This document shows positions 48,481-64,000 of a stretch of 64,000 nucleotides of DNA, piece after piece. Made by a program: the position numbers and the translations under genes. The DNA comes from a phage, in the sequence record QB031382.1; one strand, 5' to 3'. Every line of letters begins with the position of its first letter. Positions within the stretch are counted from its first letter, which is position 1. The notes beneath the pieces were generated by a model. It was not told the origin of the DNA, did no database searches, and saw nothing but the letters and a program-made list of their open reading frames with translations.

Positions 48481-48681
48481 TTAGTAATACTCCCAACATG
48501 CCCCATCTTCAGACGGCTTGACGCGCTTACCTTTATGGTCAACATAGGTATAGCCACAACCTTCACAAATAACAGGTGCTGCATAGCCTTCCTTCCACTG
48601 ATCCTCAGTGATCAGACCTTCCAAATCTTTGCAGTCAAAGCCAAACAACTCTTCAGAGCAATCTTTACAAAAATCAGCCAT
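48481..48681 (-). CDS. Small zinc-ribbon-like protein
   Basis: 66 aa with CKDC and CEGCG pairs; RBS GAGG; start overlaps upstream stop. Confidence 0.45.
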   Translation of the reverse strand: MADFCKDCSEELFGFDCKDLEGLITEDQWKEGYAAPVICEGCGYTYVDHKGKRVKPSEDGACWEYY

Positions 48682-48684
48682 TTC

Positions 48685-49092
48685 TCAGTCCTCGCATTTA
48701 ACAAATTTTTCTACAGATCCGCCAAGCACAGCTTGTTGCTTGATGGCACTTCCTTCATCATAGTGGATAGATTTATGCTCCGTTCCACCAAACTTCCCTG
48801 TGTGGAAAGTATGCACCCAAATCTCTTTGGGAAGGGATTTATTCTCTTCCTCCACCAACTCCCACATACCCCACAAGTGATCTGTGATATCTCTGATGAA
48901 ATATCCCTCACCAAGATTTGTATTCACACTGTAGGTGGATTTGTGATCTCCGCAAATATAACGGAAGGCAGTGTACTCTTTTCCCGGTGTGAAGTGGGTA
49001 TCCATCAGTATGGCTGTTAGAGAATAAGGGTCTCGAAAGCCCAAGAATTTTAGTTTAACAATTTCGACGTTCACACTTGCAAGATTATCCAT
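48685..49092 (-). CDS. Hypothetical early protein
   Basis: ATG 49092 preceded by AGAGGAGA; the longer ORF to 49167 would start at TTG. Candidate promoter TTGACA-15-TATGAT at 49125-49151. Confidence 0.45.
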   Translation of the reverse strand: MDNLASVNVEIVKLKFLGFRDPYSLTAILMDTHFTPGKEYTAFRYICGDHKSTYSVNTNLGEGYFIRDITDHLWGMWELVEEENKSLPKEIWVHTFHTGKFGGTEHKSIHYDEGSAIKQQAVLGGSVEKFVKCED

Positions 49093-49255
49093 GACAATCT
49101 CCTCTGTTTGGTTGGTGAGATAATCATATATAAGTCTGGTGTTAGTGTCAAGCTTAATTTTAAGCAATTTGAGAAGGTATTTTATTCAGAAGGGTAATCA
49201 CACAGAGGTAGGCAGTTTATGAAGGCACAGGCCTCTTTTGAGGCCTTAAAATCGA

Positions 49256-49636
49256 TTATGACACTTTGACGTAGCGCTCTGACAAAGCTGGAAAGCCAAC
49301 AGAAGTACCTATGCTGCCGTATGCTATCCACCATTGAAGTTCATCGTGACACCATTTTCCGATCAGAAAGGTGCTGGGGTAGCGAGTCAGTATTTTGGCA
49401 TAAGCTTTAGGATCTGCATCCTCTGGGATAATGATGCTTGGAGCATCTTTGTTATGACCACAGCAGCAGTTTAGAGTTTTCAATCCTGCCGCCCATAGAC
49501 TCATGATAGGCTTAACCATGCACTTATCAAGGCACACACGTTTTTTGCCGTCACGGAGCTTTTTAGGCACATCAACGATAACATTTTGATGCTTGGCACC
49601 TTTCACTTTCCAATTATAGGATTTACACTTGCACAT
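49256..49636 (-). CDS. Hypothetical Cys-rich protein
   Basis: 126 aa; RBS GGAG. Confidence 0.45.
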   Translation of the reverse strand: MCKCKSYNWKVKGAKHQNVIVDVPKKLRDGKKRVCLDKCMVKPIMSLWAAGLKTLNCCCGHNKDAPSIIIPEDADPKAYAKILTRYPSTFLIGKWCHDELQWWIAYGSIGTSVGFPALSERYVKVS

Positions 49637-49687
49637 TTAATCAGTCTCCATTTAGAAGTACACACTATTACGTTTTTGAGGCATACC

Positions 49688-49858
49688 TTACTTAAAGTCT
49701 TTATCACCTGTTACGATTGCACGAATCCACTCATTGTGATGCTTAATGGCGGTAAGGTGTAACATAATGTAGTGATTGTCATTACCAAACACGGCGCGAC
49801 AAGCTTTAGCAGCACCATGGTGTAACTTCCACATCAAGTAATGGTATCTTCGTTTCAT
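49688..49858 (-). CDS. Small basic His-rich ORF (56 aa), not in the supplied ORF track
   Basis: MKRRYHYLMWKLHHGAAKACRAVFGNDNHYIMLHLTAIKHHNEWIRAIVTGDKDFK. Start overlaps the upstream stop (ATGA); fills an otherwise empty 218-nt gap. Confidence 0.3.
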   Translation of the reverse strand: MKRRYHYLMWKLHHGAAKACRAVFGNDNHYIMLHLTAIKHHNEWIRAIVTGDKDFK

Positions 49859-50328
49859 GGCTCTTTCTCCGGTTCAGGATCTGGGTAATCTTCAATAATA
49901 AAGGGCCATCCGTTACGCTTAGCGTCAGACTTATACTCAATTTCCTTCATTGCAAACTCTAGCTGATTCTTGGCTGGAATGCAAGCTGGAGAATCATCAA
50001 CCCAGATGTCCGGGTAGATATCAAACTGCGCCAGATAAGCGGCCTTTTGAACACCTCCAGTATAAAACACTCCAACATCAAGTTCCTTGCGCCAGTATTC
50101 AATGTCCACATTATCTTGAGTGATGAATCGAAAAGTCACAAGGTAGACTGTCCACCCTTCCTTCTTCAGGTCCTTAATCAAGCGGGAGAAGATGAAAGGG
50201 CTCGCATTAAACGTTCCATCAAAGTCAATGGCTATGATATGTGTGCCGTGGCGAGTCTCATATGGATTGCTCGTGGTAAGATTGCTGTAGTTAAAAGGCA
50301 CTTCTTCCCCGCAGTAGCTGTAGTCCAT
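49855..50328 (-). CDS. HAD-superfamily phosphatase-like protein (possible nucleotidase)
   Basis: IIAIDFDGTF (DxDGT motif I) and VWVDDSP (motif IV-like). ATG 50328 with GAAGGTG RBS; GTG 50334 alternative. Confidence 0.45.
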   Translation of the reverse strand: MDYSYCGEEVPFNYSNLTTSNPYETRHGTHIIAIDFDGTFNASPFIFSRLIKDLKKEGWTVYLVTFRFITQDNVDIEYWRKELDVGVFYTGGVQKAAYLAQFDIYPDIWVDDSPACIPAKNQLEFAMKEIEYKSDAKRNGWPFIIEDYPDPEPEKEP

Positions 50329-50330
50329 AT

Positions 50331-50606
50331 TCACACCTTCTCGTTAATAAATTTACGGGCGGTTTGGTGAGTTGTTTCTGCTGTCTTCAGAATGATATTA
50401 ATTTTATTGTCAAGATCATTCATCTCAGCAGTTAATTCAGGAATCTCTCCAGCATGCATGGTGAAATCATACATAGACATGCCTAGAATCTCGTTAATGC
50501 GGCGGTTGCATTCTGCAGCACGCTGGTTCATTTTCCACGCTAACACCAAAGCCTCCTGTGTGGCTTCTAATGCAAAGTCTAATACGTCGGCCTCTTCTTT
50601 CGTCAT
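50331..50606 (-). CDS. Hypothetical helical protein
   Basis: 91 aa; RBS AGGAGAG. Confidence 0.45.
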   Translation of the reverse strand: MTKEEADVLDFALEATQEALVLAWKMNQRAAECNRRINEILGMSMYDFTMHAGEIPELTAEMNDLDNKINIILKTAETTHQTARKFINEKV

Positions 50607-50661
50607 CTCAGTCTCTCCTGTTTATTGTTGATAGGTGCATGAATGCCTTATAACTAACTCT

Positions 50662-51228
50662 TTATTCAAATTGCAATAGCAAGTCCACCACCGCGCTAGG
50701 TCTGTCAACAAACTCCCCAGGCCCACATGCCCATAGAGGGTATCCGTCCACATACCTCCATATCCAACCTGAAGTGTGGAGCTCAAGAAGGGCAGTACCG
50801 TCCTCACTGTCAACCACTCTTTCCCACAGTGTTGGGCAGCGAAGCTTGAGGATCGGATCCCCGCCCTTATACCCATCCATGTAGATACCCATTGCAAAGT
50901 TCAGCATCATCTTTTTGTGCACTGACCTCTTACTGAGGGTGCTCATCACTTCCTCCTTGTGGATGTTTGTAAGCTTCTCCTTGGCTACCTGCAGATCGTT
51001 GCAGCCATTGTTCAGGAGATCTTCCAGACACTTTACCCTAAGGTCGTGGATATCTTTGTCGTGCACCGTTGGTACAGGGTCGTAGCGATATAGCACTGTT
51101 GATACAAGGTTGCTAGGGTGTGGGTCTGACAGCAGCCCATAACCCCAATACTCTTCTGTATCTGAAAGGACAAGACACCCAATATCTCTGTCAAGCTTTC
51201 CTGTGTTGTACGCCACATTGACCGCCAT
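50662..51228 (-). CDS. Hypothetical protein
   Basis: 188 aa; RBS GGAG 8 nt upstream. Confidence 0.45.
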   Translation of the reverse strand: MAVNVAYNTGKLDRDIGCLVLSDTEEYWGYGLLSDPHPSNLVSTVLYRYDPVPTVHDKDIHDLRVKCLEDLLNNGCNDLQVAKEKLTNIHKEEVMSTLSKRSVHKKMMLNFAMGIYMDGYKGGDPILKLRCPTLWERVVDSEDGTALLELHTSGWIWRYVDGYPLWACGPGEFVDRPSAVVDLLLQFE

Positions 51229-51230
51229 GA

Positions 51231-51476
51231 TTATAGCTCCACTAACAAAGTGCTTTCAAAATGCCTCTCATGCAGACCGCTATAAGGAACCACTTCCACA
51301 ACACCGTCTCGGATATATGGAGTCATCATGGCAACATAATCACCGAATGGGTTGGCATTATCACTAACCACAACCACATGCTGCCCCTCCTTGGCAGAGT
51401 GCCAGATAGATCTGCATTTCATCATGTGTTCGAGAGCTCCAGGTAAAATCTTGTTACGTTCTTTACGGGTCTTCAT
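51231..51476 (-). CDS. Hypothetical protein
   Basis: 81 aa; start overlaps upstream stop (ATGA). Confidence 0.45.
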   Translation of the reverse strand: MKTRKERNKILPGALEHMMKCRSIWHSAKEGQHVVVVSDNANPFGDYVAMMTPYIRDGVVEVVPYSGLHERHFESTLLVEL

Positions 51477-51922
51477 AACAGGTATAGCTCCTTATGAAAG
51501 TGGGCTTTCAATTTCTCACCGAGAAACTTCTTGATACCTTCCTCTAAGGTGTTTTCGATGTAGTCCAGCTTAACTGCTTCTATGGACATATCATAGATCG
51601 CCAGCTCTAAGCTGTCAAGTCCCATCATAGCATGAACCATAAGATTTTCATCTTCAGATACATTCAGGGGGCTGCCTATAACATCCGGGGGCAGAATAGT
51701 TTCCCAATTATTCTGGGTGGTAGATCTCTCGCCATCCACCTTACGTCGCAGCTCGAAGGTGTTTTTAGTGTAAAACACTTCATAAGAAACGATACGACTG
51801 TCGCTCTCGTAATAAACGAAGTTCAGGTAGGAGCCGAGCCGTAGTCGGCAAACTTCTACTCCAAACCATTGTTTCTTATAAGAATTCAGGCTAATGCTTT
51901 CGCATTCGCGTTTGCTCAACAC
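51473..51922 (-). CDS. Hypothetical protein
   Basis: 149 aa; GTG start after AAGGAG. Confidence 0.45.
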   Translation of the reverse strand: MLSKRECESISLNSYKKQWFGVEVCRLRLGSYLNFVYYESDSRIVSYEVFYTKNTFELRRKVDGERSTTQNNWETILPPDVIGSPLNVSEDENLMVHAMMGLDSLELAIYDMSIEAVKLDYIENTLEEGIKKFLGEKLKAHFHKELYLL

Positions 51923-51937
51923 GGCTCTCTCCTTTTG

Positions 51938-52171
51938 TTAATCTTCGTAAATCAGGATCTCTGCTTTAGGTTTTCGTGCTTTCAGGTCCAGCTCTATCCA
52001 GTGCACCACAGATGTTTCAAGAAAAACAGCCTGTATGCATCCGTCTTCAGCGTGTCCTACTAGCATAACAAGATCTTCACCTTCGTCATCTGCATCACGA
52101 ACATACAGAATCTCTCCAGATTCAAAGTCTTTCACAACCTGGTTGCTGGATAATTTACGAATTTTTGCCAT
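51938..52171 (-). CDS. Hypothetical acidic protein
   Basis: 77 aa; tightly packed in operon. Confidence 0.4.
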   Translation of the reverse strand: MAKIRKLSSNQVVKDFESGEILYVRDADDEGEDLVMLVGHAEDGCIQAVFLETSVVHWIELDLKARKPKAEILIYED

Positions 52172-52172
52172 A

Positions 52173-52436
52173 TCAGAAACCCTCTAAAAAGCTCTTGTAG
52201 AAAATAATCTCAGTATCCACACCAGTCACGATCTTATCGTTCCTGATTTCATCTGTAAGATAGGTGTCAAAACGCAGAACCTGTGTGGTGTTGTCACACA
52301 TCCACTCGGCTGTGACCATGGCGAAAATCTTAGCATCTTCATTGTCAGGTGTGAATGTTACCACCTCACCGCATTTAAACTTTTCGATAGGCTGCGTGTT
52401 AGCTTTCGGTTCTGCAATGGTTATTTTTGTGGTCAT
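52173..52436 (-). CDS. Hypothetical protein
   Basis: 87 aa; start overlaps upstream stop. Confidence 0.4.
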   Translation of the reverse strand: MTTKITIAEPKANTQPIEKFKCGEVVTFTPDNEDAKIFAMVTAEWMCDNTTQVLRFDTYLTDEIRNDKIVTGVDTEIIFYKSFLEGF

Positions 52437-52693
52437 TGTTCTTCCTCCATAGTTTCACCAAATACTTCGATACGAGCGTCAAGCTCTGTTGCTTTCAGCT
52501 CTCCAACAAAATCTTTCAGTTCTTTCTCGTCAAGATCATATGCCCACACACAAGATGAGCACGCAGATTTCACGATTAGCAGTGTAGATACACGACCTGA
52601 CTCTGTAATCATGCTCACAATAGTTCCTACAGGAAACGTGTTGATAGCTTTTTTAACTGGGCGTTCAGCTTTAATTACTACTTCTGTTGCCAT
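52433..52693 (-). CDS. Hypothetical protein
   Basis: ATG 52693 lies 9 nt after AGAGAGG; ATG 52702 abuts the RBS. Confidence 0.4.
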   Translation of the reverse strand: MATEVVIKAERPVKKAINTFPVGTIVSMITESGRVSTLLIVKSACSSCVWAYDLDEKELKDFVGELKATELDARIEVFGETMEEEQ

Positions 52694-52708
52694 AAATAAC
52701 ATCCTCTC

Positions 52709-54169
52709 TTATTTAGCGTACTCGATCAATTCTACAGTTTTCCCAAAGCTTGGGATATAATTTTTATTATACCCTTCGGTGAGAACCCATAAAGTATCGT
52801 ACTTTTTCCACTTGTTGTCAACAGCCTTTTGTTCAAAGTTATGCTCAAAGTATAGGTCGGTCAGGACGATGACATCTTTTGCATTTGGTATGTTAGCGTC
52901 CAGATACTCGAACACGCAAGCGGCTGTTGTTCCCCATGTTGAGTGGACCTCATAGTTGATCATCTCGTCGATGTTCCCACGAGTGTATACTTTAACCTCT
53001 CCAACCTCGGTTGACCAGCAGAACATCGTAACCTTGAACTCTTTATACAGATTGCACAACCCAGTGATCTCATTGAACATTTTCTTTAAAGTTCTTTGGG
53101 AGATCGATCCAGAAACGTCTAGAGCCACCACAATATCTATAGTGTTTTCCGGATTACGACCTGGAACAACAACGTGCTGATTCTTGTTTATAGCCCCAAC
53201 TTTTCGCATTGTGCTGGTCAAAGACCCAGATCGGCGACCGGGTTTTCTATAGGTTAGTTCAGCCTTTCGTTTAGACAGCATACGTTGCTTAATGATGTCT
53301 ATATAATTGATTACAGGCTTACCTCTGTTCTTGACAAACTCACGCACAGCCTCAGGGCAACGACCTCCGGAAGCCTGCATTGCTGCTTCCAACATGTCAC
53401 CAGAGTCCTGCATGGCTTGATCTTTATCAGATTGACTGATCACTGGTTGTGGCTGATCATACCCCATCGCCTTTCCAAGATCATCACTAGTGCCACCGTT
53501 ACCACTCATGTGATCATCGGTTTGTCGTTTATCTCCTTGAGAGTTCTCTCCTTTACCGTTCTTACTTTTACCGCTATTCTGATCTCTTTGCTTATCAAGA
53601 ACCGCATAGACGTTCTCAGCAATCCATCCATGGAACCTCATGTCACAGTAGCAACTAGCTAAGAAGCCAAAAGGCTTACCTTTTACAAACGTAGTGCTTT
53701 TCCCCTTCGGGAAGAAAACACAAGGTGGCTTGCTAAAGTCAACCACAAGACCTGTGTTGATAACATGATCACAGGCAATATTGAACAGCTCCGGCTCAAA
53801 GCTTTTACCACGGACCAGATGATCACAGATAATATGTCCCACCTCATGCGATAGAAGAAATGCCACCTCTTTCACAGATTTGGGGGAATAGAAAACCTCA
53901 GCCATCTCAAACTGCTTGTCAGTCAAAGATGCCTTAAGAATGGTTTTGCGCTCATCGGCCAATCCCATAACGAACTCAGGACTGTAATAAATGCGTTTAT
54001 GATCTGTTGCCATGGTGGAGCACCATGTGTGGTTTTCTACGAACTGCAACCCTGATAACAGTGTGCCATAAAACGGCAGTTTTTCAAGAAGATACATACG
54101 TGCTGCCTGCAGCATTCGCAAGGCGTCATCTTTTTGTGCGGCAATGATTTCTGAACTTCTGCTATCCAT
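52709..54169 (-). CDS. VWA-domain protein with N-terminal HExxH metallopeptidase-like region
   Basis: HEVGHIICDH (HExxH) in the N-terminal third. C-terminal DVSGSIS fits a MIDAS DxSxS motif. Gln/Asp/Ser-rich linker between. Confidence 0.55.
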   Translation of the reverse strand: MDSRSSEIIAAQKDDALRMLQAARMYLLEKLPFYGTLLSGLQFVENHTWCSTMATDHKRIYYSPEFVMGLADERKTILKASLTDKQFEMAEVFYSPKSVKEVAFLLSHEVGHIICDHLVRGKSFEPELFNIACDHVINTGLVVDFSKPPCVFFPKGKSTTFVKGKPFGFLASCYCDMRFHGWIAENVYAVLDKQRDQNSGKSKNGKGENSQGDKRQTDDHMSGNGGTSDDLGKAMGYDQPQPVISQSDKDQAMQDSGDMLEAAMQASGGRCPEAVREFVKNRGKPVINYIDIIKQRMLSKRKAELTYRKPGRRSGSLTSTMRKVGAINKNQHVVVPGRNPENTIDIVVALDVSGSISQRTLKKMFNEITGLCNLYKEFKVTMFCWSTEVGEVKVYTRGNIDEMINYEVHSTWGTTAACVFEYLDANIPNAKDVIVLTDLYFEHNFEQKAVDNKWKKYDTLWVLTEGYNKNYIPSFGKTVELIEYAK

Positions 54170-54181
54170 TAAAACTCCAGA

Positions 54182-54198
54182 AGGGGCCTTTGGCCCCT
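54182..54198 (-). other. Intercistronic hairpin between two leftward genes
   Basis: GGGGCC / loop / GGCCCC between stop at 54203 and start at 54169. Confidence 0.35.
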
Positions 54199-54202
54199 GT
54201 CA

Positions 54203-55192
54203 TTATTTAACGTGCTTGAAAATACCAGCCAACTCGGTCATTGTCATGCGGGTGGTCTTCATGAGGTCTGTCATAGCCTTCTCCATAATTGGAGATACTA
54301 CCATAAAGTTACCTTTGGTGAAACCTTTATTCCAGTCGGTAACTAATAGTGGTTTAAGTCCGGACCCGAGACGCTCACCAGTTAAAGCACAACATTTTCG
54401 AATGTATGTGCTCTTAAACTGGCTGAATGACAGATCAACTTTCATACCTGCATCGTAGAACGTCTGGCAATAGAAAGTGTAAGCTTTGGCAATCTCAACA
54501 TCGTCAGGCAGTGCAGGAACCTCTTCTGTAAGCTCTTCTTCGCCCCCTTGAGGCTCTTTTTCCTCTTCGTGGTCTTGTTGTATCATTTCTTCAATCTCTT
54601 CTGTTACAGGCTCGTTTACAATGTCAGAAATGTGCTTGTTGGCTCCACGATTAGCCATGAAGTTTTTAAAATCCTGCATTGGTGACATATCTTCCTCCCA
54701 TTCTTCGTCAAAGAGTGCTAGTTTATCCTCTTCCGTTCCATATTGCAAGATGAAATCTTCAAAAGTGTAATCACCTTTCAATTTCTCCATACGCTCTTCG
54801 CTCAGGTGGAGCATCATCTGCTGGACAATTTTTCGATCAGTTTTGTCTTTAATCAAGATTGCGGTCTTTTTATCTACCAGGCAGTCTTTCAGAGAGTTAC
54901 ACCTCAATCCTACCACACAACAGTTATCAATTGCGTAAGGACCTTCATCATCTATCCGCTCCAGAGATGGGTAGAAAGGATTCCCCAGCCCGTTTTCATC
55001 TGTGTGCATGTCGAAAGGTATAAGGGTATAGTCGCATACCCCCTCTCCTAAAAGTTTTTTACCAAATAGGAGGTATTCTTCCCATGACAGGTTGAACTCT
55101 ATATCTCGTTTCCGTGCATTATTTTGTTTGCGTCTGTATTTTTTGAGCAGGCGCTCTAACTCTTCTGGTGTATAATATTTTTCAAGATTCAT
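54203..55192 (-). CDS. Early protein with degenerate HNH_3-like segment and acidic linker
   Basis: ATG 55192 chosen because a promoter (TTGACA-17-TAAGAT) sits inside the TTG-initiated extension to 55258. LERIDDEGPYAIDNCCVVGLRCNSLK resembles an HNH_3 core lacking the catalytic His. Confidence 0.4.
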   Translation of the reverse strand: MNLEKYYTPEELERLLKKYRRKQNNARKRDIEFNLSWEEYLLFGKKLLGEGVCDYTLIPFDMHTDENGLGNPFYPSLERIDDEGPYAIDNCCVVGLRCNSLKDCLVDKKTAILIKDKTDRKIVQQMMLHLSEERMEKLKGDYTFEDFILQYGTEEDKLALFDEEWEEDMSPMQDFKNFMANRGANKHISDIVNEPVTEEIEEMIQQDHEEEKEPQGGEEELTEEVPALPDDVEIAKAYTFYCQTFYDAGMKVDLSFSQFKSTYIRKCCALTGERLGSGLKPLLVTDWNKGFTKGNFMVVSPIMEKAMTDLMKTTRMTMTELAGIFKHVK

Positions 55193-55223
55193 GAGTTGTC
55201 TCTTGTGCTCTGTAGGTGGAGAA

Positions 55224-55252
55224 ATCTTATCAAGTGCCTGGGAATATGTCAA
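55224..55252 (-). promoter_or_regulatory. Leftward sigma70-like promoter
   Basis: On the minus strand: TTGACA, 17-nt spacer, TAAGAT. Confidence 0.5.
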
Positions 55253-55265
55253 CCTCAAAAACGTG

Positions 55266-55294
55266 TTGACTTTACTCTAAATCCACGATATAGT
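55266..55294 (+). promoter_or_regulatory. Rightward sigma70-like promoter
   Basis: TTGACT, 17-nt spacer, TATAGT; divergent from the leftward promoter. Confidence 0.5.
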
Positions 55295-55334
55295 TCACCC
55301 ATTCGAAAGAAAACGAACACAGGAGTACTTAATC

Positions 55335-56234
55335 ATGGCAAATCTTAACAGCTTTAGCACTCGATGGAAACAAGATATCACAACTAATCTCTCTGCAGGC
55401 GATATCCTTTCTGCAATTTACGAGGCTTTGGATGATAAAGCTACTTCAAAATCGGTTTGTACCAACCCGTTAATTCCTATGGTAATGAAGGTGATTGAGC
55501 GTAGGTTGGTATCCGGATCTGATAAGTGGACATATCTGGATAATGGAGGCCACACTTACTCCAACGGCTATGTAGATATAAAAGTAGAATATGCGGTATC
55601 ATATCGCCGGAGCGGCTCTGTAACTTTCAACTTCTCTGGTGGTTTCCGATCTCTGGCAACTTCACCTTTTGTTTCCTCAGAGCAGAAGTTTGAACTTCCG
55701 TTCCTTTGGATGATGGCTAACGCGACAGGCAAAACCCCTGTAAGCATTCGCGTAAAATACAACTACAACGGATCTAGTAAGATCTATGCCGAGAGTGTCT
55801 CAGCAAGTTTTTATTTTGTGATGGGGGATGGAATCCTCAAACATATAAAGATGTGCGATATGCATGATGTTATAAATGAAGTGACTGATAAGAATGTTCT
55901 GGTGAAGGATCTCAACAATTTTTATACACCGGGAGACTATTACGTCAACCGTCCACTGTGCATCTTTAATGCTGCACACCCTTTAGGTGAGTATTTGATT
56001 GCCAATAGTGATATTGCCAATAACCGCTTCGAGGTAGCAAGAGTACAGAATGAGGTGTTGACATCTTGCAAGAGCGGTGATAAGTTTACCGAAGAAGAGA
56101 TGGGTGTTTTAGAAATGATGGGATATAAGTGTAGCCTTTGGGTAGATGAGGTGTTTAATGACGGCATCTATGGACAGGATATTTACCCGTTAAAGAAGTA
56201 TACTGATTCCAGTTTAATTTACGCGGAGATTTGA
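55335..56234 (+). CDS. Hypothetical protein
   Basis: 299 aa; RBS AGGAG; first gene of the rightward operon. Confidence 0.5.
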   Translation: MANLNSFSTRWKQDITTNLSAGDILSAIYEALDDKATSKSVCTNPLIPMVMKVIERRLVSGSDKWTYLDNGGHTYSNGYVDIKVEYAVSYRRSGSVTFNFSGGFRSLATSPFVSSEQKFELPFLWMMANATGKTPVSIRVKYNYNGSSKIYAESVSASFYFVMGDGILKHIKMCDMHDVINEVTDKNVLVKDLNNFYTPGDYYVNRPLCIFNAAHPLGEYLIANSDIANNRFEVARVQNEVLTSCKSGDKFTEEEMGVLEMMGYKCSLWVDEVFNDGIYGQDIYPLKKYTDSSLIYAEI

Positions 56235-56236
56235 CT

Positions 56237-56509
56237 ATGATGAAGGCATGTGGTAGTGTATACTATGTGGGTGAAAATGTTCAGGCAGACAGTGTGTGGA
56301 AATCCATTAAGTCCACCACCGATGATGCCTTCTTGAGCGGGCTATGTTTCCCCAATCCTGGAGACATTCTCCCTCACCCTGGGGATTTTGTTGTTAACAA
56401 GACAGATGGTTATACTGTGTGCCTGATGGTTGAAAAAATCTTTTTAGACACTAGACACAATCACCGTCTTGTGTTAAAATTTCAAGAATGTAAAATGACA
56501 GTTGCCTAA
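56237..56509 (+). CDS. Hypothetical protein
   Basis: ATG 56237 after GGAG; TTG 56231 alternative. Confidence 0.4.
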   Translation: MMKACGSVYYVGENVQADSVWKSIKSTTDDAFLSGLCFPNPGDILPHPGDFVVNKTDGYTVCLMVEKIFLDTRHNHRLVLKFQECKMTVA

Positions 56510-56521
56510 GGAGGCCTACCA

Positions 56522-56881
56522 ATGTCTAAAGTTACTTATCGTGCAGCTATTTACTGCAATGAGCAACCAATCAATAGTGATGGTCACTGCTTTTTTAAAG
56601 AAAATCAGTTGGGCTGTATTGCCCTCCTTGATGAAGGGGAAGGTTATATGATTGCATTGACAGGGTTTGAGCCTGAAGCCTTGGAAGCCAATCTGGACTA
56701 CCTGGTAGAGAAGGGTGCTGCAGACTTGGTTGCCAATGGCCTCTCCATAAGCCTTGAAGAAGTGGAGCGCTTCATGGGCAATTACCGTGTAGTGCGTGAG
56801 TTTACTGTCGAGGTGGAAACTCCAGAGTGGGGTAGCACTGAAACTAATGCTGAAGAAAAAGAAGAGGGGGTAGAAGAATGA
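56522..56881 (+). CDS. Hypothetical acidic protein
   Basis: RBS AGGAGG; 119 aa. Confidence 0.45.
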   Translation: MSKVTYRAAIYCNEQPINSDGHCFFKENQLGCIALLDEGEGYMIALTGFEPEALEANLDYLVEKGAADLVANGLSISLEEVERFMGNYRVVREFTVEVETPEWGSTETNAEEKEEGVEE

Positions 56882-57135
56882 AAGTGCAGATCTTGACTAA
56901 TGCCGAGAAGATGTTTATCGAAGATACGCCTTTTGAAACTGGTGAGCTACAGTTTGTATATTTTGTTGACTTAGATAAGGTTTTTCCTGCGCTGAATCTG
57001 GGTTTGGAGAAAGTACCTTATAAAACTCTATGCCAGGTTGTCCGTGCCTTAGCTGCAGATGGGGAGTTCCACACCCTTGAAGATATCCAGACCTATGGGT
57101 ATCTTGAACTGCAACGAGAAGAAGAGGTAGACTGA
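56878..57135 (+). CDS. Hypothetical protein
   Basis: 85 aa; start overlaps upstream stop. Confidence 0.45.
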   Translation: MKVQILTNAEKMFIEDTPFETGELQFVYFVDLDKVFPALNLGLEKVPYKTLCQVVRALAADGEFHTLEDIQTYGYLELQREEEVD

Positions 57136-57137
57136 TA

Positions 57138-57518
57138 ATGGCCCAGTGGAAGACAACAGTTGACCTTCATGATCAGTGGTTAGGACGCATAACTGAAGAC
57201 GGGAAACTGGTAGAGTGGGACAACAAGCATGTTAGCGAGTTGGCAAGTATTGTGGCTGGCAAGTTACGCTCCAAGTTCCCTGAACAACTGGATCCTGATA
57301 GTTCAAAGTTCGATCCTGAGTTGGAGGATGTTGTATACTACTTCGACACCGTGGATGACTACGATGCGTGGTTTGCAGCACTGGAGTTATACCCACAAGG
57401 ATCCGCTATGCGCCGGATGGAAGAAGATTACCCTCCGTGTGAGCAATTCAATAGTGCAATGACTTGCCTTTATGATTGGGCAGATAAGAACCTTGTCTGG
57501 ATTCGGACTGCATTTTAG
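57138..57518 (+). CDS. Hypothetical acidic protein
   Basis: 126 aa. Confidence 0.45.
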   Translation: MAQWKTTVDLHDQWLGRITEDGKLVEWDNKHVSELASIVAGKLRSKFPEQLDPDSSKFDPELEDVVYYFDTVDDYDAWFAALELYPQGSAMRRMEEDYPPCEQFNSAMTCLYDWADKNLVWIRTAF

Positions 57519-57562
57519 TGGGTAGGGATGGCGGCAAGGATGCTGCTTAAGGAGCAGTAGAG

Positions 57563-57832
57563 ATGTTATACCAGCAGTACGAACTTCGTGCAGAAAAAGA
57601 ATTAAATTTTGACAAAGATATTCACAGATATTATTATGGGAAAGTTAGAGGACAAGCAAGAAAGTGTACTCCAACACTCTTTCATGCCAGCAGACGACTA
57701 GCTCCAGAAGAGGCAACAGCAGAAAGGGTTGCATATGGCTGGAGAGTTGCGTATGATATTGACAGATCCGATGTGATGTCTGTTTTGGAAAACTTTGAAA
57801 ACACTTACACACAAGTAGAGGACTTTTACTAA
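57563..57832 (+). CDS. Hypothetical protein
   Basis: 89 aa; RBS GGAG. Confidence 0.45.
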   Translation: MLYQQYELRAEKELNFDKDIHRYYYGKVRGQARKCTPTLFHASRRLAPEEATAERVAYGWRVAYDIDRSDVMSVLENFENTYTQVEDFY

Positions 57833-59016
57833 TGTCAAGAAACGTATTCGAAAGTGGTCAAATCACTGTCCGCGAGTTGCCAGCTATTATTCAATTTGCC
57901 CAGCGTCATAACCGATCTGTCCTGATTTTAGGACCGATGGGTGTGGGGAAGAGCCAGGTGATGAAGCAGATTGCTGATAATATGTTCGGTGAGCGAGATG
58001 ACAACCTGGTTGACGTGCGGCTGTCAGATAAAGATCCTGCTGACTTATCTGGACTACCTATCCCTGTAGAGGCAGATGGAACTACACGCACAGTGTTTGC
58101 AATTCCAGAATTTTGGCCTGCAGACTCGGACTGGAGCGGAATTATCTTTCTGGATGAGCTTACTCATGCAGATAACTACCTGCAGAAGGTTGCAATGCAA
58201 ATTATGCTCGACCACAAGTGCGGCACCTATGCATTTCCTAAGGGCTCTGTTTTTGTAGCTGCAGGTAACCGTGCTACAGATGGTGCTGTTCTTTCGGCGC
58301 TCGAAGCTCCTCTGGCTAACCGCTTTATCATTGTAGAAGTTACAAGCAATGCAGAGGTATTTATTGAGGACTACGCATTCCTTAATGGTGTACATTCCTC
58401 TGTAATTGGATATCTGAAAAGAGTTCCATCAGCTATCGATAATTATGAGGCTATGGCTGAGATTAATTGTCCGTCTTTTGCCACACCGCGATCTTGGGTT
58501 GCTGCATCTGACATCCTGCACGATTTTGACAGCGGTATTATTTCTGACGCTATGGCTCGTGTTCTTCTGCAAGGTGCTATTGGTCACACTGCAGCGGTAG
58601 AAATCTGGACCTACCACACCAAGAAACGAAACTTGCCAGAAATCGGTCGGATTATGGCAGGGGGTTGCAAAGAGTATGTAGGTCCTAAGCAGCCAGACAT
58701 CTTGTGGATTCTGGGGTCTGAAGGTTGTATCGCTATTCGTAACATGATGGAAAATGCAAGTATCTCCGACGAAGATCTTGTCAGCTGTGTGGCAAACTTC
58801 CTTGATTTCCTTTGGGAAAATTTCAAAGATGAAAACCGAGACTTTGTATTCTCAGTCTTTATGGCGATGATGAAACCCAACGCCCTAGGGAATGCCTTAC
58901 TTATTGGTAAAGGCCGGGACAAGATCGTTGCTCAGCTGATCAAAGCATACCCAAACCTGATGAAGATTGTAAAAGAGTTTGGTGAAGAGTTTAGCGCCAT
59001 TTTAGCTAAAGCTTGA
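57832..59016 (+). CDS. AAA+ ATPase, MoxR/CobS-like (AAA_5-type)
   Basis: Walker A GPMGVGKS, Walker B IIFLDELTHA, then VFVAAGNRATDG. Single-module length typical of MoxR-type ATPases. Confidence 0.6.
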   Translation: MSRNVFESGQITVRELPAIIQFAQRHNRSVLILGPMGVGKSQVMKQIADNMFGERDDNLVDVRLSDKDPADLSGLPIPVEADGTTRTVFAIPEFWPADSDWSGIIFLDELTHADNYLQKVAMQIMLDHKCGTYAFPKGSVFVAAGNRATDGAVLSALEAPLANRFIIVEVTSNAEVFIEDYAFLNGVHSSVIGYLKRVPSAIDNYEAMAEINCPSFATPRSWVAASDILHDFDSGIISDAMARVLLQGAIGHTAAVEIWTYHTKKRNLPEIGRIMAGGCKEYVGPKQPDILWILGSEGCIAIRNMMENASISDEDLVSCVANFLDFLWENFKDENRDFVFSVFMAMMKPNALGNALLIGKGRDKIVAQLIKAYPNLMKIVKEFGEEFSAILAKA

Positions 59017-59025
59017 GGAGGTTGT

Positions 59026-59406
59026 ATGGCTAAAGTAGGTAAGCGGGGAAACTACCTGGTGGTATTGACAGAGGAGCCGGAGAAGGAGTACGAATGCAGC
59101 TCCACCTGCGTGATCGATATCCGAGAAAAAGATGTAGATGAAATCTGGTTTAAAATACTGGACGCTTGCGACAGTAGTGATTATTTCTTCATCTATGTCA
59201 ACGATAAAGCTGGGTTCTTCCATGACGATGGAGAGTTACCGTATGAAATCTATGAACTTGTAGAGGCTTGCCATCGTGGAGATGCGGAGTTGTTTGGTCT
59301 ACGGCTGAAAAGCGGTAAATTTTTCTACCAAGATGAGTGCATGAATCTTCACAACTTCGTAGAGGGGACTTGCAATGATGGAGAGATTTTGGCACACTAC
59401 GACTAA
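59026..59406 (+). CDS. Hypothetical acidic protein
   Basis: 126 aa; RBS GAGGAGG. Confidence 0.45.
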   Translation: MAKVGKRGNYLVVLTEEPEKEYECSSTCVIDIREKDVDEIWFKILDACDSSDYFFIYVNDKAGFFHDDGELPYEIYELVEACHRGDAELFGLRLKSGKFFYQDECMNLHNFVEGTCNDGEILAHYD

Positions 59407-59418
59407 TTTCTAAGACCA

Positions 59419-59446
59419 CCCCCGCTTCGGCGGGGATTTTCTATTT
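59419..59446 (+). terminator. Intrinsic terminator
   Basis: CCCCGC / TTCG / GCGGGG followed by ATTTTCTATTT. Confidence 0.55.
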
Positions 59447-59455
59447 GGAGTTATT

Positions 59456-59956
59456 GTGAAAATTAAGATCTTTGCTATTATTTTGAGCGCATTTTTATCG
59501 CTGCCTGTTGTTGCAGCACCAAAACAAAAAGTATATCACACCTGCAAGCCATCGGATACTAAGGAAAACATTCTAGCATGTAATATCTACAGGGAGGCTA
59601 GAGGGGATGGCACGATGGGTATGCTGGCATCAGGGTTTGCCACACTAAACAGGAAATCTCACCCCAAATACCCGGACACCATAAGAAAGATTGTCTACCA
59701 ACCTAACCAGTTTTCGTGGACAAACCACGGCAAAACTTTTAAGGTGACAGAAAAAGATTCATGGGATCACGCTAAAAGTCTTGCAAAGATGCTTCTAAAG
59801 GTCTATAATAACAACCATGTTGCATACATGGCTATGGATATAACAGGTGGAGCAACACACTATCATACAACAAAAGTACGACCGAAATGGGCAAAAAAGA
59901 TGCAGAGGACAGCTCAATTCGGGAGTCATATCTACTACAAGGAGCGCAATAAATGA
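59456..59956 (+). CDS. Secreted cell-wall hydrolase (SleB/CwlJ Hydrolase_2-like), candidate endolysin
   Basis: GTG start after GGAG. N-terminal signal-peptide-like MKIKIFAIILSAFLSLPVVAAP. Domain motifs NIYREARGDG ... GGATHYHT ... RPKWA. Confidence 0.6.
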   Translation: MKIKIFAIILSAFLSLPVVAAPKQKVYHTCKPSDTKENILACNIYREARGDGTMGMLASGFATLNRKSHPKYPDTIRKIVYQPNQFSWTNHGKTFKVTEKDSWDHAKSLAKMLLKVYNNNHVAYMAMDITGGATHYHTTKVRPKWAKKMQRTAQFGSHIYYKERNK

Positions 59957-61935
59957 TTGTAAACAGTAATGAAACTAAAGCAGTGCTAACTGGGAATTTG
60001 GAGGTAACAAGGGGATCAATTTCTCTGAACAAAGAAACTTTTGGGTTAATCATTAAAGGGATTTATGAAGATAAGGTGCTGGCAAGCTGCCGTGAACCAA
60101 TCTTCAATGCTGTGGACTCTCATGTTGAGTCTGGACGTGGTGATGTTCCGATCATCATTCACTCCCCTACAGATCTTGAACCATACTTCTTTGTGCAGGA
60201 CGTTGGCCTCGGTATGTCAGAAGAGATGGTCCGCAACACTTTCATGAACCTCGGCGAGTCAACCAAGCGCGACAGCAACGATCTGGTAGGCAATAAAGGT
60301 GTTGGTTCAAAGGCCCCGTTCAGCATGGTGGACACTTTCGATGTAATCAGTGTGCACAATGGTGTGGAAAGCACATACCTATTGTTCTTGGACCAGGGTA
60401 TCCCAAATGTCACCAAGATCCGTGAGCGGAAGACTGAAGAGCACAATGGAGTAAAAGTTCAGTTTCATGTTAAGAAAGAGCATGTTCTGAAATATCGCAC
60501 CGCTATTGCATCATGTCTGCGCTATGCAAAATTTCCGTTCACTGTCACCGATCCGATGACGAGCAAGATGCTGGAGGGAGACAAAGTAGAGGCGCAGTAT
60601 TATTATGAAAAAGATGGTTGGAAGATGACCATCCTGAAGGGCTATACCAGCTCTGACGAGAGTCGTGTGGTAATGGGTCACCAACCTTACCGTTCTAAGT
60701 TCCTGGAAACACTAACAGATTATCCTGCAATTTGTGTAGAGATCCCTATCGGAGATTGCAATATTAACCCAGGGCGTGAATGGACCATAGAAGGTCACGA
60801 CGATGGTGGATTCCAAGAGCGTTTGGAAGCTTTTGTCAAAGAAGGCATTCGCCTTCGTGGAGCAGAAGTTGTTGCAGAACTGGAGACAGCAAAAACATCC
60901 TCAGAAGCACGCGAGATGATGAAGAACAGTGGAGTGTTCGGGCACATCTTCGGTAAGAATTTTATGTATAACCGTTGGGAAGAAACAGGACTAGGGAATT
61001 TGGGGGACTGCGAGATCTTCGCGGGTGGCTTAAATAAAGGCCGCATAGGCTACGCTTGTTACGGAAAGGTAGAATTCTTACGAGGAGTCTATTTAGTATT
61101 TAACGACGGAGACGGTAAATATAACCGAAATAAGTGTAACTACTTAAGCGAGATCACCGGACGCAACGTTTTCTATTGCCGGAACACGGATCTGGTAAAA
61201 GAGTTTAAAGAGGCGGCACACCATCCGTTTTTTGCAGATACGGTCAAATTGTTATCAGAGCTTCCTCGCCGACCTGTGAAGAAAGGTGAAACCAAAACTC
61301 GTTACGAGCCAGGCTATTGGGTTAAAAAACTTGAGAAGGATGGTTACTTCCGTCGTGAGCGTATTACTAAGGCAGAGTTCAGGAAGATTAAGCACTGCAT
61401 TCCTTATGAGGGTGATATCCAACGTGGAAGTTGTTGGCTGGGACAGCTGAGTAACATCTACCAGCAAAATTATGACCGTGTGCGTGCGGCACTCCAGATT
61501 CCTGAAGGGGAAGATCTGTACCTAGTATCAGAATCTCGTCTGCTTTGGACTGATCCTGATTGCCAGTATGTTACAGAGAAGAATGTGGAACATTTGTTGA
61601 AAGAGGACGCCTGGAAATTCTTACTGACTCGCGCAGCAAATGAAACTTCATATGACAGCCTGTATAGACAATTAGGGAAAATTATTCCCATGCAAGATTT
61701 TGGAAATTATCGGCCACATTTCCACAAGTGGGAAGGTAACACCGCGTGGAAGCACAGTGAGCTAAATCATCGTGCCAAAATCTTAATCGCCAACCGAGTT
61801 AAATGCGGGAAGGCCTATATTGCAAGATTGGAAAAGAAATACCCACTTTTGAAGCATGTAGGCTTGAAATATTGGGACACTCCTGCTATGATTGAATACC
61901 GTGAACTGATCGATACAAAGAATAACATCAAATAA
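59953..61935 (+). CDS. rIIA: rIIA-like protein with N-terminal GHKL ATPase fold
   Basis: GHKL motifs in order: EPIFNAVDSH, VQDVGLGMSEEMV, GNKGVGSKAPF. Closely parallels the T4 rIIA N-terminus as recalled. Confidence 0.6.
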   Translation: MIVNSNETKAVLTGNLEVTRGSISLNKETFGLIIKGIYEDKVLASCREPIFNAVDSHVESGRGDVPIIIHSPTDLEPYFFVQDVGLGMSEEMVRNTFMNLGESTKRDSNDLVGNKGVGSKAPFSMVDTFDVISVHNGVESTYLLFLDQGIPNVTKIRERKTEEHNGVKVQFHVKKEHVLKYRTAIASCLRYAKFPFTVTDPMTSKMLEGDKVEAQYYYEKDGWKMTILKGYTSSDESRVVMGHQPYRSKFLETLTDYPAICVEIPIGDCNINPGREWTIEGHDDGGFQERLEAFVKEGIRLRGAEVVAELETAKTSSEAREMMKNSGVFGHIFGKNFMYNRWEETGLGNLGDCEIFAGGLNKGRIGYACYGKVEFLRGVYLVFNDGDGKYNRNKCNYLSEITGRNVFYCRNTDLVKEFKEAAHHPFFADTVKLLSELPRRPVKKGETKTRYEPGYWVKKLEKDGYFRRERITKAEFRKIKHCIPYEGDIQRGSCWLGQLSNIYQQNYDRVRAALQIPEGEDLYLVSESRLLWTDPDCQYVTEKNVEHLLKEDAWKFLLTRAANETSYDSLYRQLGKIIPMQDFGNYRPHFHKWEGNTAWKHSELNHRAKILIANRVKCGKAYIARLEKKYPLLKHVGLKYWDTPAMIEYRELIDTKNNIK

Positions 61936-61945
61936 GGAGACCAAG

Positions 61946-63151
61946 ATGATTTTCATCTACGAACATTTCAAAACCCGTAAAGAAGCAAGAGACCGCCGTG
62001 CAGAACTTGAGAAGAAGGGTTTCATATGTGCCATTGAGAAAGGCGACACAACCTGGACACTGGCAGTTGGTGCCCCAGAGTTGTTCGATCCTGACCGTGA
62101 CAGCGTCTGCTACACCCGTGAAGATTTTGAAACCCGCGAAGAGGCCCGTTTATTTCGATACGGTCTGGAAGATAACGGTAAGTACGCCATGATCTTAGAT
62201 TTAGGCGAAGGGTCCGTTAAACGTTGGGGCGTGGTATACCCACTGTGTGTTGTTCATGGTGTGGGGTTCACTGGGGTAGCAATCAAGTCAGAAGAACCTT
62301 TAGTAGAAGTCAAAGATCCGGTGCTGGAGGTGGTGAGCAGTGTATCTCAGCAACAGACTCGAAGTATTGAGCCTTTGGTAGTTATTTGTGGGGAACTCCT
62401 CCAGATCACCTGCAACGAAGGCATTTTTGAAATTCGCCGCAGTGAAAGTGAGGAAGTTTACCAGAAAGTCTTCGACCATATCTCTGCCCAGAAATATGAC
62501 GAGGCAATTGGTGAAATCCTTGTCTGGTTGGAACGCAAGAATGAGTTCACTACACTTGCAGACAACCTGATCATGAAAGATGGTAAGCTCTACTACTACG
62601 GTGTAGAGATGCGATCCACCATTGCAAAGAAAATTGAGAAAGATTATGCAGACGGAACACTAGATGACCGCTATGTGAAATTCCTAGTTCGCCTGCTACG
62701 CAATCCTTCTGCAAAATCTGTAAACATGCTCTACGATTTTATGCAGGCCAACGATATCCAGGTTGCAGAAGATGGTCGAATCATTTGCTACAAAGGGGTT
62801 CAGTTTAACGGCAGCAAGTGGGTGGATTGGCACAGTGGTAAAGTTCCACAATACCAGGGTGCTTTTGTATCCATGCCTCGTAACTTTGTAGAGGATGATC
62901 CTGAAGCTGCTTGCTCCTATGGCTTACACTGCGCCAGCAAAGAGTATGCAAAGAGCTACGGCACTGTAATGACTGTTATGGTTGATCCTGCAGATGTGGT
63001 CAGTGTGCCATACCAACACAATAGCGCTAAGTGCCGTGCATGCCGCTATGAGATTGTGGTAGCTCCGGAAGCACGCAAAGACGGAGACCCTATTGAATAT
63101 GTAGTTGATCGTGACGGTAACACTATCGACATTCTTTACGAGGAGGCGTAA
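61946..63151 (+). CDS. rIIB: rIIB-like protein
   Basis: C-terminal NPSAKSVNMLYDFMQANDIQVAEDGRIICYKGV ... GLHCASKEYAKSYG ... VDPADVVSVPYQHNSAKCRACRYEIV parallels T4 rIIB as recalled; adjacent to rIIA-like gene. Confidence 0.6.
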   Translation: MIFIYEHFKTRKEARDRRAELEKKGFICAIEKGDTTWTLAVGAPELFDPDRDSVCYTREDFETREEARLFRYGLEDNGKYAMILDLGEGSVKRWGVVYPLCVVHGVGFTGVAIKSEEPLVEVKDPVLEVVSSVSQQQTRSIEPLVVICGELLQITCNEGIFEIRRSESEEVYQKVFDHISAQKYDEAIGEILVWLERKNEFTTLADNLIMKDGKLYYYGVEMRSTIAKKIEKDYADGTLDDRYVKFLVRLLRNPSAKSVNMLYDFMQANDIQVAEDGRIICYKGVQFNGSKWVDWHSGKVPQYQGAFVSMPRNFVEDDPEAACSYGLHCASKEYAKSYGTVMTVMVDPADVVSVPYQHNSAKCRACRYEIVVAPEARKDGDPIEYVVDRDGNTIDILYEEA

Positions 63152-64000
63152 TGGAAAAAGGGCAGTATGATGTAGGCACAGATGCTGCCCTCGTTGCAAT
63201 CATGAGCGGTGAGAATGTCTTCGTTTCAGGACCTGCAGGTTGTGGGAAGACGTATCTCATCAACATGATCCAGTCAATGTATGGAGACTCTTGCATAACG
63301 GTTGCCCCGACAGGGGTAGCCGCTTTAAACGTTAATGGAGCAACAGCACACCGAACCTTCGATCTTGCAGCAGGTGTGAGCATGGAGTCAGACTGGACCG
63401 CAATAAGGGCAAAAACAGCAAAGCCTTTGAAAAGCAAGGCATTTACCATCCTAATTATCGATGAAATCTCTATGATCCGTGCTGATAAGTTTATAGAGAT
63501 GGATAGGAAACTCCGCTTCCTTCGAAAAAATGACAAACCTTTCGGAGACATACAGGTCATATTGTTTGGCGATTTTTACCAGGCACCTCCTGTTGTCTCT
63601 TCTATGGAGAAGGAAGCCTACTTCAACTTCTACCATACGGACCTGTGTTGCTATACCGAATCTTGGAAAGAGCTTGACCTCCACAACATAGCCCTAGTAG
63701 ATCAGTTCCGACAGGAGTCTATTCGATTTGCCACAATGCTCAACTGTGTTCGTGAGGGTCGTCGCATAAAAGAGGTTGTAGCAGAACTTAATGCTCGCTG
63801 TTACAAAGGCGGTGTACCAACAGACGCTCTCACAATTTGCGCCACCAACAAACAAGCGGAGGAAGTGAACAGAAGGTTCTATGATGCCATCAACGCCCCA
63901 GAGAAGGTATACACTGGTGAAATGAAGGGTAAGTTTCCCTCCACCCTGCCAGTTGAGCAGGAGATGAAGTTGAAAATTGGCATGAAAGTTATGATAACCG
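63151..64000 (+). CDS. Pif1/RecD/Dda-like SF1 helicase (3' end outside window)
   Basis: ATG overlaps upstream stop (TAATG). Walker A GPAGCGKT, APTGVAA, IIDEISM, ILFGDFYQAPPV. ORF runs to window end. Confidence 0.65.
   Translation, partial: MEKGQYDVGTDAALVAIMSGENVFVSGPAGCGKTYLINMIQSMYGDSCITVAPTGVAALNVNGATAHRTFDLAAGVSMESDWTAIRAKTAKPLKSKAFTILIIDEISMIRADKFIEMDRKLRFLRKNDKPFGDIQVILFGDFYQAPPVVSSMEKEAYFNFYHTDLCCYTESWKELDLHNIALVDQFRQESIRFATMLNCVREGRRIKEVVAELNARCYKGGVPTDALTICATNKQAEEVNRRFYDAINAPEKVYTGEMKGKFPSTLPVEQEMKLKIGMKVMIT

Follow-up and report, generated by a model that had tools for sequence, protein, structure and literature searches.

What does a phage do with a MoxR-type AAA+ ATPase, and with which protein does this ATPase work? 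The question is raised by an open reading frame (ORF) at positions 57832-59016, on the plus strand, of a 64,000-nucleotide stretch of phage DNA (sequence record QB031382.1; this whole stretch is referred to here as the window). An initial annotation had described its product as a MoxR/CobS-like AAA+ ATPase and the likely partner of a protein with a VWA domain (type A of von Willebrand factor). The 8-kb stretch around the gene shares 94-98% identity with over 100 genomes of Vequintavirus, that is, of rV5/FV3-like myoviruses of Escherichia coli. We find that the assignment to the MoxR class holds at the level of the protein family, and that the working partner of the ATPase is, with good support, a protein that joins a putative zincin metallopeptidase domain to a VWA domain. 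The two proteins probably cooperate in the ATP-dependent remodelling or cleavage of a client. For the window itself the result is ordinary: the gene is real, had been interpreted correctly and was already annotated, and its partner had been guessed correctly.

Assignment of the ATPase to the MoxR class

The ATPase gene encodes a protein of 394 amino acids and is the orthologue of rV5 gene 4. Its ATG start codon overlaps the stop codon of the preceding ORF as TAATG, and a Shine-Dalgarno sequence, GAGGA, is located 10 nucleotides upstream. Because homologues were recovered down to E = 5e-261 and near-identical proteins are present in more than 100 phage genomes, the ORF is a gene, as had been proposed, and not a chance reading frame. 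The protein matches phrog_1297 (2e-110), is 99.2% identical to its counterpart in rV5_ev146, an rV5-derived record, and is 100% identical to that of SYGMH1. Vequintavirus records annotate the gene as 'MoxR ATPase' or 'ATPase', and rV5 gene 4 is listed as 'MoxR - ATPase', 394 amino acids (Kropinski et al. 2013, Virol J 10:76; Table S3, PMC3606486). It is the same gene, with the same placement relative to a SleB-like hydrolase, rIIA and an Srd-like gene, and no difference in the ATPase, such that the identification is already part of the public annotation. ATPases of this type occur in 790 of approximately 50,700 cultured-phage records. A bacterial scan, which used one genome per species and a narrow search pattern, yielded ten loci of the family, all on contigs of metagenome-assembled genomes, and no cellular operon context was gained from them. 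Since this narrow pattern returned these ten loci only, the subfamily looks phage-borne.

For a family-level analysis, the window protein was aligned with 35 relatives, at 29-86% identity. A complete AAA+ module is apparent from this alignment, with the Walker A and Walker B motifs, N146, R164 and R220 invariant in all 36 sequences. The Walker A motif, or P-loop, GPMGVGKS occupies residues 34-41 (57931-57954, plus strand, as for all features of this gene), where G37, G39, K40 and S41 are invariant. The Walker B motif GIIFLDE occupies residues 103-109 (58138-58158; IIFLDE at residues 104-109), where the same is true of D108 and E109; both motifs had been recognized in the initial annotation. 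The most conserved stretch, residues 59-90 (58006-58101), which served as the search pattern, comprises strand beta2 and the helix-2 insert, with the motif DVRLSDKDPADLSG and a beta-hairpin, and retains D61, R63, L64, D71 and G74 throughout. The sensor-1 region, AAGNR at residues 143-147 (58258-58272), lies at the end of strand 138-145 and keeps A144, G145, N146 and R147 in every sequence. R164, within LANRF (58321-58323), is a candidate arginine finger, and R220, within ATPRSW (58489-58491) at the start of the lid helix, is a candidate sensor 2. N163 and R164, like P219 and R220, are invariant, and both roles are suggested by position in the AAA+ fold.

The AlphaFold2 model of the ATPase (predicted local distance difference test, pLDDT, 84.3) contains the alpha/beta core and the lid, the lid helix spanning residues 219-233. 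A beta-hairpin formed by strands 75-81 and 84-90, located between beta2 and the Walker B strand, corresponds to the helix-2 insert (regional pLDDT 74-86), and a short pre-sensor-1 hairpin at residues 129-134 lies ahead of strand 138-145. Beyond the AAA+ module the protein carries an extra, all-helical C-terminal domain of residues ~270-394 (58639-59013; helices at 288-393 in the model). This domain gave no match, and the Foldseek alignments to CbbQ and NorQ span only about 280 columns. In the subfamily of ATPases of about 400 residues, the C-terminal domain contains a 26-residue insertion relative to relatives of about 360 residues.

The class assignment depends on the family as a whole. In its own Pfam search the window protein matched AAA_14, AAA_5 and bpMoxR at 16-21 bits, all below the gathering thresholds, and a single-sequence search of the PDB returned only P-loop matches to ClpB and ClpC. 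Among the 36 family members, 18 match the Pfam model AAA_5 (PF07728; best 2.4e-9), 15 match AAA_3 (PF07726; best 3.1e-8) and 18 match bpMoxR (PF20030). Relatives at about 34% identity to the window ATPase (E ~1e-43) carry AAA_3, AAA_5 and bpMoxR, and its membership of the MoxR class holds by transitive homology at this level. The best solved-structure match of the family profile is midasin (2e-11; residues 18-173, from the P-loop to sensor 1). The top 12 Foldseek matches to the model are CbbQ2 and NorQ, including NorQ-NorD VWA complexes, at 16-21% identity; the closest structural relatives are thus MoxR proteins, and no best match fell in a clamp-loader or DnaA-like clade. Within the AAA+ proteins, the ATPase belongs to the helix-2-insert clade that includes CbbQ/NorQ, midasin and dynein modules.

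The CobS-like part of the initial label does not apply. Neither CobS_N (PF12556) nor CbbQ_C (PF08406) was detected by Pfam in the window ATPase or its 35 relatives, no CobS PHROG was matched, and the partner is a DUF2201_N-DUF2201 (zincin-VWA) fusion and not CobT; a CobS/CobT identity was accordingly rejected. Library scans confined to the proteins of the window did not find CobN. An identity as part of a defence system was also rejected: PADLOC returned only P-loop-level matches for the ATPase (E of at least 5.6e-4, 14-16 bits) and none for the VWA protein.

The zincin-VWA protein and its linkage to the ATPase gene

The predicted partner is a protein of 486 amino acids encoded at 52709-54169 on the minus strand, and is the orthologue of rV5 gp12. 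Its gene does not adjoin the ATPase gene but belongs to a divergent transcription unit, at a distance of 3.66 kb. The pairing is indicated by gene order in other phages, where the ATPase gene is coupled to a VWA gene bearing a MIDAS (an adhesion site that depends on a metal ion). In approximately five other phage lineages this gene is found on the same strand, directly after the ATPase gene or after one to four small genes.

Among 80 IMG/VR loci with a relative of the ATPase, 70 have a same-strand DUF2201 gene that follows 27-566 nucleotides downstream. Of the other ten loci, eight are on contigs that end within about 150 nucleotides of the ATPase gene; in the last two (L011 and L057) other genes are inserted and the contig then ends. 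These two were considered as counter-examples to adjacency and dismissed, as the end of the contig leaves the gene order undecided there. The ATPase gene is immediately followed by the VWA gene in L002-L004, in L005 and in the jumbo phage PBECO4, the two matches in fHe-Yen9-04 and YH30 share a strand and fall within about 0.2-0.7 kb of each other, and one small gene separates the pair in the N4-like phage LUZ7. Within the subfamily of about 400 residues a series can be followed: the genes are adjacent in L005 (35% identity), are separated by four small ORFs in L086 (42%), and are divergent and 3.7-4.4 kb apart in PVP-SE1 and L087 (~50-54%) and in the window. The split onto divergent units was found only in Vequintavirinae. 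This gene order in relatives indicates an ancestral same-strand operon, with the ATPase gene preceding the VWA-peptidase gene, that was split in Vequintavirinae while both genes were kept intact.

Among cultured phages the genus counts of the two proteins are nearly identical, and the VWA-zincin protein is present in 672 of the records described above. Together, these observations support the VWA-zincin protein well as the working partner of the ATPase, in line with the initial annotation, and identify rV5 gp12-type proteins as its cognate partner; the two would be expected to interact physically. In the rV5 paper (Kropinski et al. 2013) gp12 was left 'hypothetical' and its pairing with gene 4 was not stated.

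Pfam detects two domains in the partner, DUF2201_N (putative zincin; 5.4e-28) and DUF2201 (VWA-like; 3.4e-11), both above the cut-off, and some homologues also match VWA_CoxE. The MIDAS motif DVSGS is found at residues 351-355 (53105-53119, minus strand). D351, S353 and S355 are invariant in 28 homologues, as are the downstream MIDAS residues T414 and D438, such that the full MIDAS set is kept. In the structural model (pLDDT 80.7) the C-terminal VWA fold matches integrin I domains, CMG2, BatB and the VWA domain of NorD; beyond this fold the protein is not CobT-, NorD- or CbbO-like. The N-terminal part contains the zinc-binding and catalytic motif HEVGH at residues 108-112 (53834-53848, minus strand), in which H108 and H112 never vary among the same homologues and at least 90% of these retain E109. 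The peptidase domain has no solved-structure relative by sequence or by Foldseek, all Foldseek matches falling in the VWA domain. Since the glutamate of the HExxH motif is catalytic and not a metal ligand, its conservation favours real peptidase activity, and the zincin domain appears from its sequence to be an active HExxH peptidase. A conserved basic linker around residues 305-320, YRKPGRRSGS..., precedes the VWA domain and is modelled with low confidence; more speculatively, it may be a pore-engaging or remodelled segment.

Database labels for the partner differ from this domain content. PHROGs (phrog_1314) and numerous phage records of GenBank and RefSeq call it an 'HNH endonuclease', and some call it an 'anti-sigma factor'. 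The Pfam scan, which gave the two DUF2201 domains, contained no HNH signal, and the endonuclease label looks like a propagated mis-annotation.

A proposed mechanism and its competitors

The model that we consider probable is one in which a MoxR-class ATPase and a VWA-zincin adaptor carry out ATP-dependent remodelling or cleavage of a client protein. The ATPase would most likely assemble as a hexameric ring, onto which the DUF2201_N-DUF2201 protein would dock by its VWA domain. The MIDAS site may then bind an acidic residue on the target protein, by analogy with NorQ-NorD and CbbQ-CbbO, and ATP hydrolysis would pull or twist the adaptor and thereby remodel the target. Because the adaptor also bears what looks like an active zinc peptidase of the HExxH type, the bound target would be expected to be cleaved or processed at a specific site in an ATP-dependent manner. 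Published work on NorQ-NorD describes a VWA domain that plugs the ATPase ring, a MIDAS that binds the client, and ATP hydrolysis that remodels a linker of the adaptor.

In the phage, both units would start from one bidirectional promoter region, such that host-type promoters would drive both genes, within a genome region that is not structural. A pattern scan identified back-to-back sigma-70-like promoters at 55224-55294, with TTGACA-17-TAAGAT on the minus strand (55252-55224) and TTGACT-17-TATAGT on the plus strand (55266-55294). In rV5 the ATPase gene belongs to the unit 10-1-238-164 and the VWA gene to the unit 11-26 (PMC3606486).

Several observations weigh against this model. The two genes are on opposite strands and 3.66 kb apart here, so inference from operon structure is indirect for this phage. 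The 80 IMG/VR loci derive mostly from one syntenic aquatic lineage and thus amount to roughly a single observation, such that the independent observations of linkage number about five lineages and not 70. The window ATPase falls below the Pfam cut-offs in its own right (AAA_5, 17.0 bits with a cut-off of 22; bpMoxR, 15.8 bits with a cut-off of 27), and its NCBIfam search gave P-loop-level matches only. Finally, promoter-like matches in the region are no commoner than in shuffled sequence, and the promoter assignment therefore rests on position and on the rV5 paper.

The closest known systems share the general logic of the pair and differ in specific parts. The best structural match is to NorQ-NorD and CbbQ-CbbO, of the CbbQ/GvpN/NorQ subfamily, which likewise combine a single-module ATPase with a separate MIDAS-bearing VWA partner; in NorD, the VWA domain has a pore-inserting 'finger'. 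However, NorQ and CbbQ are only 16-21% identical to the window ATPase, which adds the C-terminal helical domain of about 125 residues and lacks CbbQ_C. NorD and CbbO have N-terminal domains of their own, whereas the partner in the window has a zincin peptidase instead. Their clients, nitric oxide reductase and Rubisco, have no equivalent here. CobS-CobT, of aerobic cobaltochelatase, also pairs a VWA-containing subunit with a motor that belongs to this broad AAA+ clade, but the missing CobS_N and CbbQ_C domains and the DUF2201_N/DUF2201 partner make that label inapplicable. In eukaryotic ribosome assembly, midasin (Rea1) couples AAA_5-type modules to a MIDAS/VWA domain by the same logic. Midasin does so in a single chain of about 4,900 residues, in which six AAA modules are fused and the MIDAS lies in cis, whereas in the window pair each chain has a single module and the VWA domain would act in trans.

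A precedent for the pair is itself viral. A MoxR protein and a vWA protein with an N-terminal metallopeptidase were described, on purely computational grounds, in group 2.2 jumbo phages, and a role in virion assembly with proteolytic processing was proposed (Iyer, Anantharaman, Krishnan, Burroughs, Aravind 2021, Viruses 13:63; PMC7824862). The architecture, a stand-alone MoxR ATPase and a zincin-VWA fusion, is the same. The likeness to the exemplars of that study (ASV44729.1 and ASV44728.2) is one of architecture, drawn through homologues in jumbo phages: PBECO4, Atu_ph07 and fHe-Yen9-04 encode homologous proteins from adjacent genes. In the window, by contrast, the pair belongs to a non-jumbo Vequintavirus of ~137 kb and is divided between the divergent units. 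The authors cite the MoxR-VWA pair of Acidianus two-tailed virus as required for tail assembly, and no other viral MoxR-VWA system is cited as experimentally studied. As described there, and compared by description only, that virus is archaeal, and its VWA partner lacks a peptidase and is tied to extracellular tail development.

Which protein, then, would the machine act upon? Throughout the lineages examined, the pair belongs to early, replication or nucleotide-metabolism modules and lies away from structural genes. Its neighbours in Vequintavirinae include PIF1, rIIA/rIIB, the Srd-like gene and an RNA ligase; elsewhere they include a 5'-3' exonuclease and thymidylate synthase, with a helicase and DNA polymerase in LUZ7. 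Given this consistent non-structural context, an early or middle role is at least as likely as one in virion assembly, and could lie in host takeover, anti-defence or the maturation of a replication-phase complex. A specific version, in which an early or middle protease of host takeover or anti-defence would use its MIDAS to select a host or phage replication-phase protein, its ring to remodel it and its zincin to cut it, is rather unlikely as it stands. It is mildly favoured by the early or replication-module placement together with the rV5 virion mass spectrometry, in the available part of which neither gp4 nor gp12 is among the reported proteins and no peptides of either appear. If correct, it would represent a widespread phage counterpart of AAA+-coupled regulatory proteolysis, extending over Vequintavirinae, N4-like phages, jumbo phages and abundant aquatic phages.

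A role as a virion-assembly chaperone, in which the pair helps heads or tails to fold or assemble and processes structural proteins, differs from the preferred model in the target and not in the machine. We hold it to be possible, with the balance tilted well towards other targets. It is the published proposal for the jumbo-phage pair, made by analogy with Acidianus two-tailed virus (Iyer et al. 2021, PMC7824862); jumbo phages such as PBECO4 and fHe-Yen9-04 carry homologues of the pair in adjacent genes, and MoxR-VWA systems are typically maturation chaperones. The genomic evidence fits this proposal poorly, as the pair was never located among structural genes in the lineages examined. Moreover, its units here are assigned to bidirectional promoters of the sigma-70 type, whereas a T4-late-like motif is found with the late genes 27-66 of rV5 (PMC3606486). 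The mass spectrometry is a weak point against it, since an assembly chaperone need not be present in the virion.

The structural relatives could suggest another kind of client. Were the pair a chaperone that inserts metal cofactors, of the NorQD, CoxDE or CobST type, its 'peptidase' domain would be a metal-binding module and the client a phage or host metalloenzyme, for example one of nucleotide metabolism; the CobS/CobT idea of the initial annotation falls under this reading. The closest solved structures are indeed NorQ and CbbQ, VWA_CoxE is matched by some homologues of the partner, and the pair recurs near nucleotide-metabolism genes. We nevertheless consider this improbable: CobS_N, CbbQ_C and a CobS PHROG match are all lacking, the partner is unlike CobT, NorD and CbbO outside the VWA fold, and the glutamate kept in at least 90% of homologues is expected of a catalytic site rather than of a metal ligand. 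Furthermore, no gene for a client metalloenzyme is linked consistently across lineages.

It is similarly doubtful that the ATPase became independent of the VWA-peptidase once the operon was split in Vequintavirinae and now serves another client or adaptor, such as the acidic protein of 126 amino acids encoded upstream. This rV5 gp6-like ORF (57138-57518, plus strand; isoelectric point 4.2 in the rV5 table) is conserved beside the ATPase gene in three Vequintavirinae genera, being 38% identical in L087 (9566-9937), directly upstream of the ATPase gene, and 34% identical in L090 (6395-6775). When a conserved small third partner was sought among the flanking ORFs, it was the only one conserved, and only within Vequintavirinae. 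The distance between the two genes, their opposite strands and the extra C-terminal-domain insertion of Vequintavirinae-type ATPases also speak for such independence. On the other side, all the Vequintavirinae examined keep both genes and their motifs intact, as does every other lineage with the ATPase in which the VWA gene could be looked for, and the shared bidirectional promoter region is compatible with co-expression.

It is very improbable that the ATPase is of some other AAA+ type, for instance an unfoldase of the ClpB/Hsp100 kind, a loader of clamps or helicases, or an activator of the sigma-54 type, as matches to such proteins are confined to residues ~13-70 around the P-loop, whereas the full module is placed in MoxR/AAA_5 by the family Pfam results, the midasin profile, the CbbQ/NorQ folds, the helix-2 insert and the VWA linkage.

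A phage MoxR and zincin-vWA pair has thus been described computationally since 2021, and our literature search found no experimental work on phage MoxR/DUF2201 pairs. The additions made here are modest: family-level and structural support for the MoxR call, the recognition of rV5 gp12-type proteins as the cognate partner, the split-operon history, and the placement of the pair in early or replication modules across lineages. The pair is widespread, occurring in therapeutic-candidate coliphages, N4-like phages and jumbo phages, and is common in aquatic viral metagenomes. The identity of the client would give a function to a conserved two-gene module, and would correct what looks like a widely propagated mis-annotation of the partner.

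Transcription units and neighbouring genes

The initial annotation regarded the ATPase gene as the last gene before a terminator, in a run of six small ORFs. Six plus-strand ORFs do precede it (55335-57832), encoding 299, 92, 119, 85, 126 and 89 amino acids, the first of which is not small. This first gene of the rightward unit (55335-56234) is labelled 'putative alpha 1-3 fucosyltransferase' in several records; its product has no Pfam match and is a member of phrog_12338, a group of unknown function. A further candidate promoter is at 57609-57637. A terminator immediately after the ATPase gene was rejected. The ATPase stop codon is followed by a spacer of 9 nucleotides, which contains the Shine-Dalgarno sequence GGAGG, and then by an rV5 gp3-like ORF of 126 amino acids (59026-59406, plus strand; phrog_12370). 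The terminator-like GC hairpin, CCCCGCTTCGGCGGGG with a T-rich tail, lies one gene further on, at 59420-59435 (plus strand); it is the only such hairpin and closes the rightward run that contains the ATPase gene. The gp3-like ORF is absent from the corresponding position in L087 and L090, and in L087- and PVP-SE1-type genera a hairpin is directly 3' of the ATPase gene.

Downstream of this hairpin, all on the plus strand, the first gene (59456-59956) encodes a cell-wall hydrolase of the SleB/Hydrolase_2 type, whose N-terminus has a hydrophobic segment resembling a signal, and is followed by homologues of rIIA, with a GHKL ATPase domain (59953-61935), and of rIIB (61946-63151). In the aquatic lineage, a QueE-like radical SAM gene, a 5'-3' exonuclease gene and a thymidylate synthase gene are conserved neighbours in the upstream regions of L006-L085. 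A radical-SAM-like protein with a CxxxCxxC motif is sometimes inserted directly after the ATPase in this lineage (L011, 2982-3983).

On the minus strand, a GC hairpin, AGGGGCC-AAA-GGCCCCT (54182-54198), is located 13 nucleotides upstream of the start codon of the VWA gene, with a promoter-like site at 54247-54219 before it. A promoter-like site and a GC-rich hairpin precede the VWA gene in three Vequintavirinae genera (L087, 5617-5669; L090, 2669-2721). The arrangement could be a terminator-plus-restart element or a 5' stabilizing stem, and presumably resembles the promoter-stem-loop cassettes of T4-type phages. The gene upstream of it (54203-55258, minus strand) encodes a homologue of Srd-like anti-sigma proteins (sigma-70 decoys), for which phrog_1400 and phrog_4592 were both matched; an 'HNH endonuclease' PHROG, 3118, lists it as well. 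Its longest ORF starts at a TTG that would overlap the predicted promoter; the annotated ATG start, giving 330 amino acids (likely at 55192), fits better. No Rfam family reached its gathering score in 48000-64000.

Over 8 kb, sixteen records that bear the name 'Campylobacter phage' (MG0656xx, with Campylobacter jejuni given as host) share ~94% identity with Vequintavirus genomes of E. coli; their host assignment looks doubtful, or the sequences may be contaminating coliphages. In the window, GC and AT skew are negative at 48000-56000 and positive elsewhere, which fits a single leftward unit (rV5 genes 11-26). This unit converges on an ORF of 1875 amino acids at 42807-48434, where the YP-6 record annotates a bacterial Ig-like domain protein.

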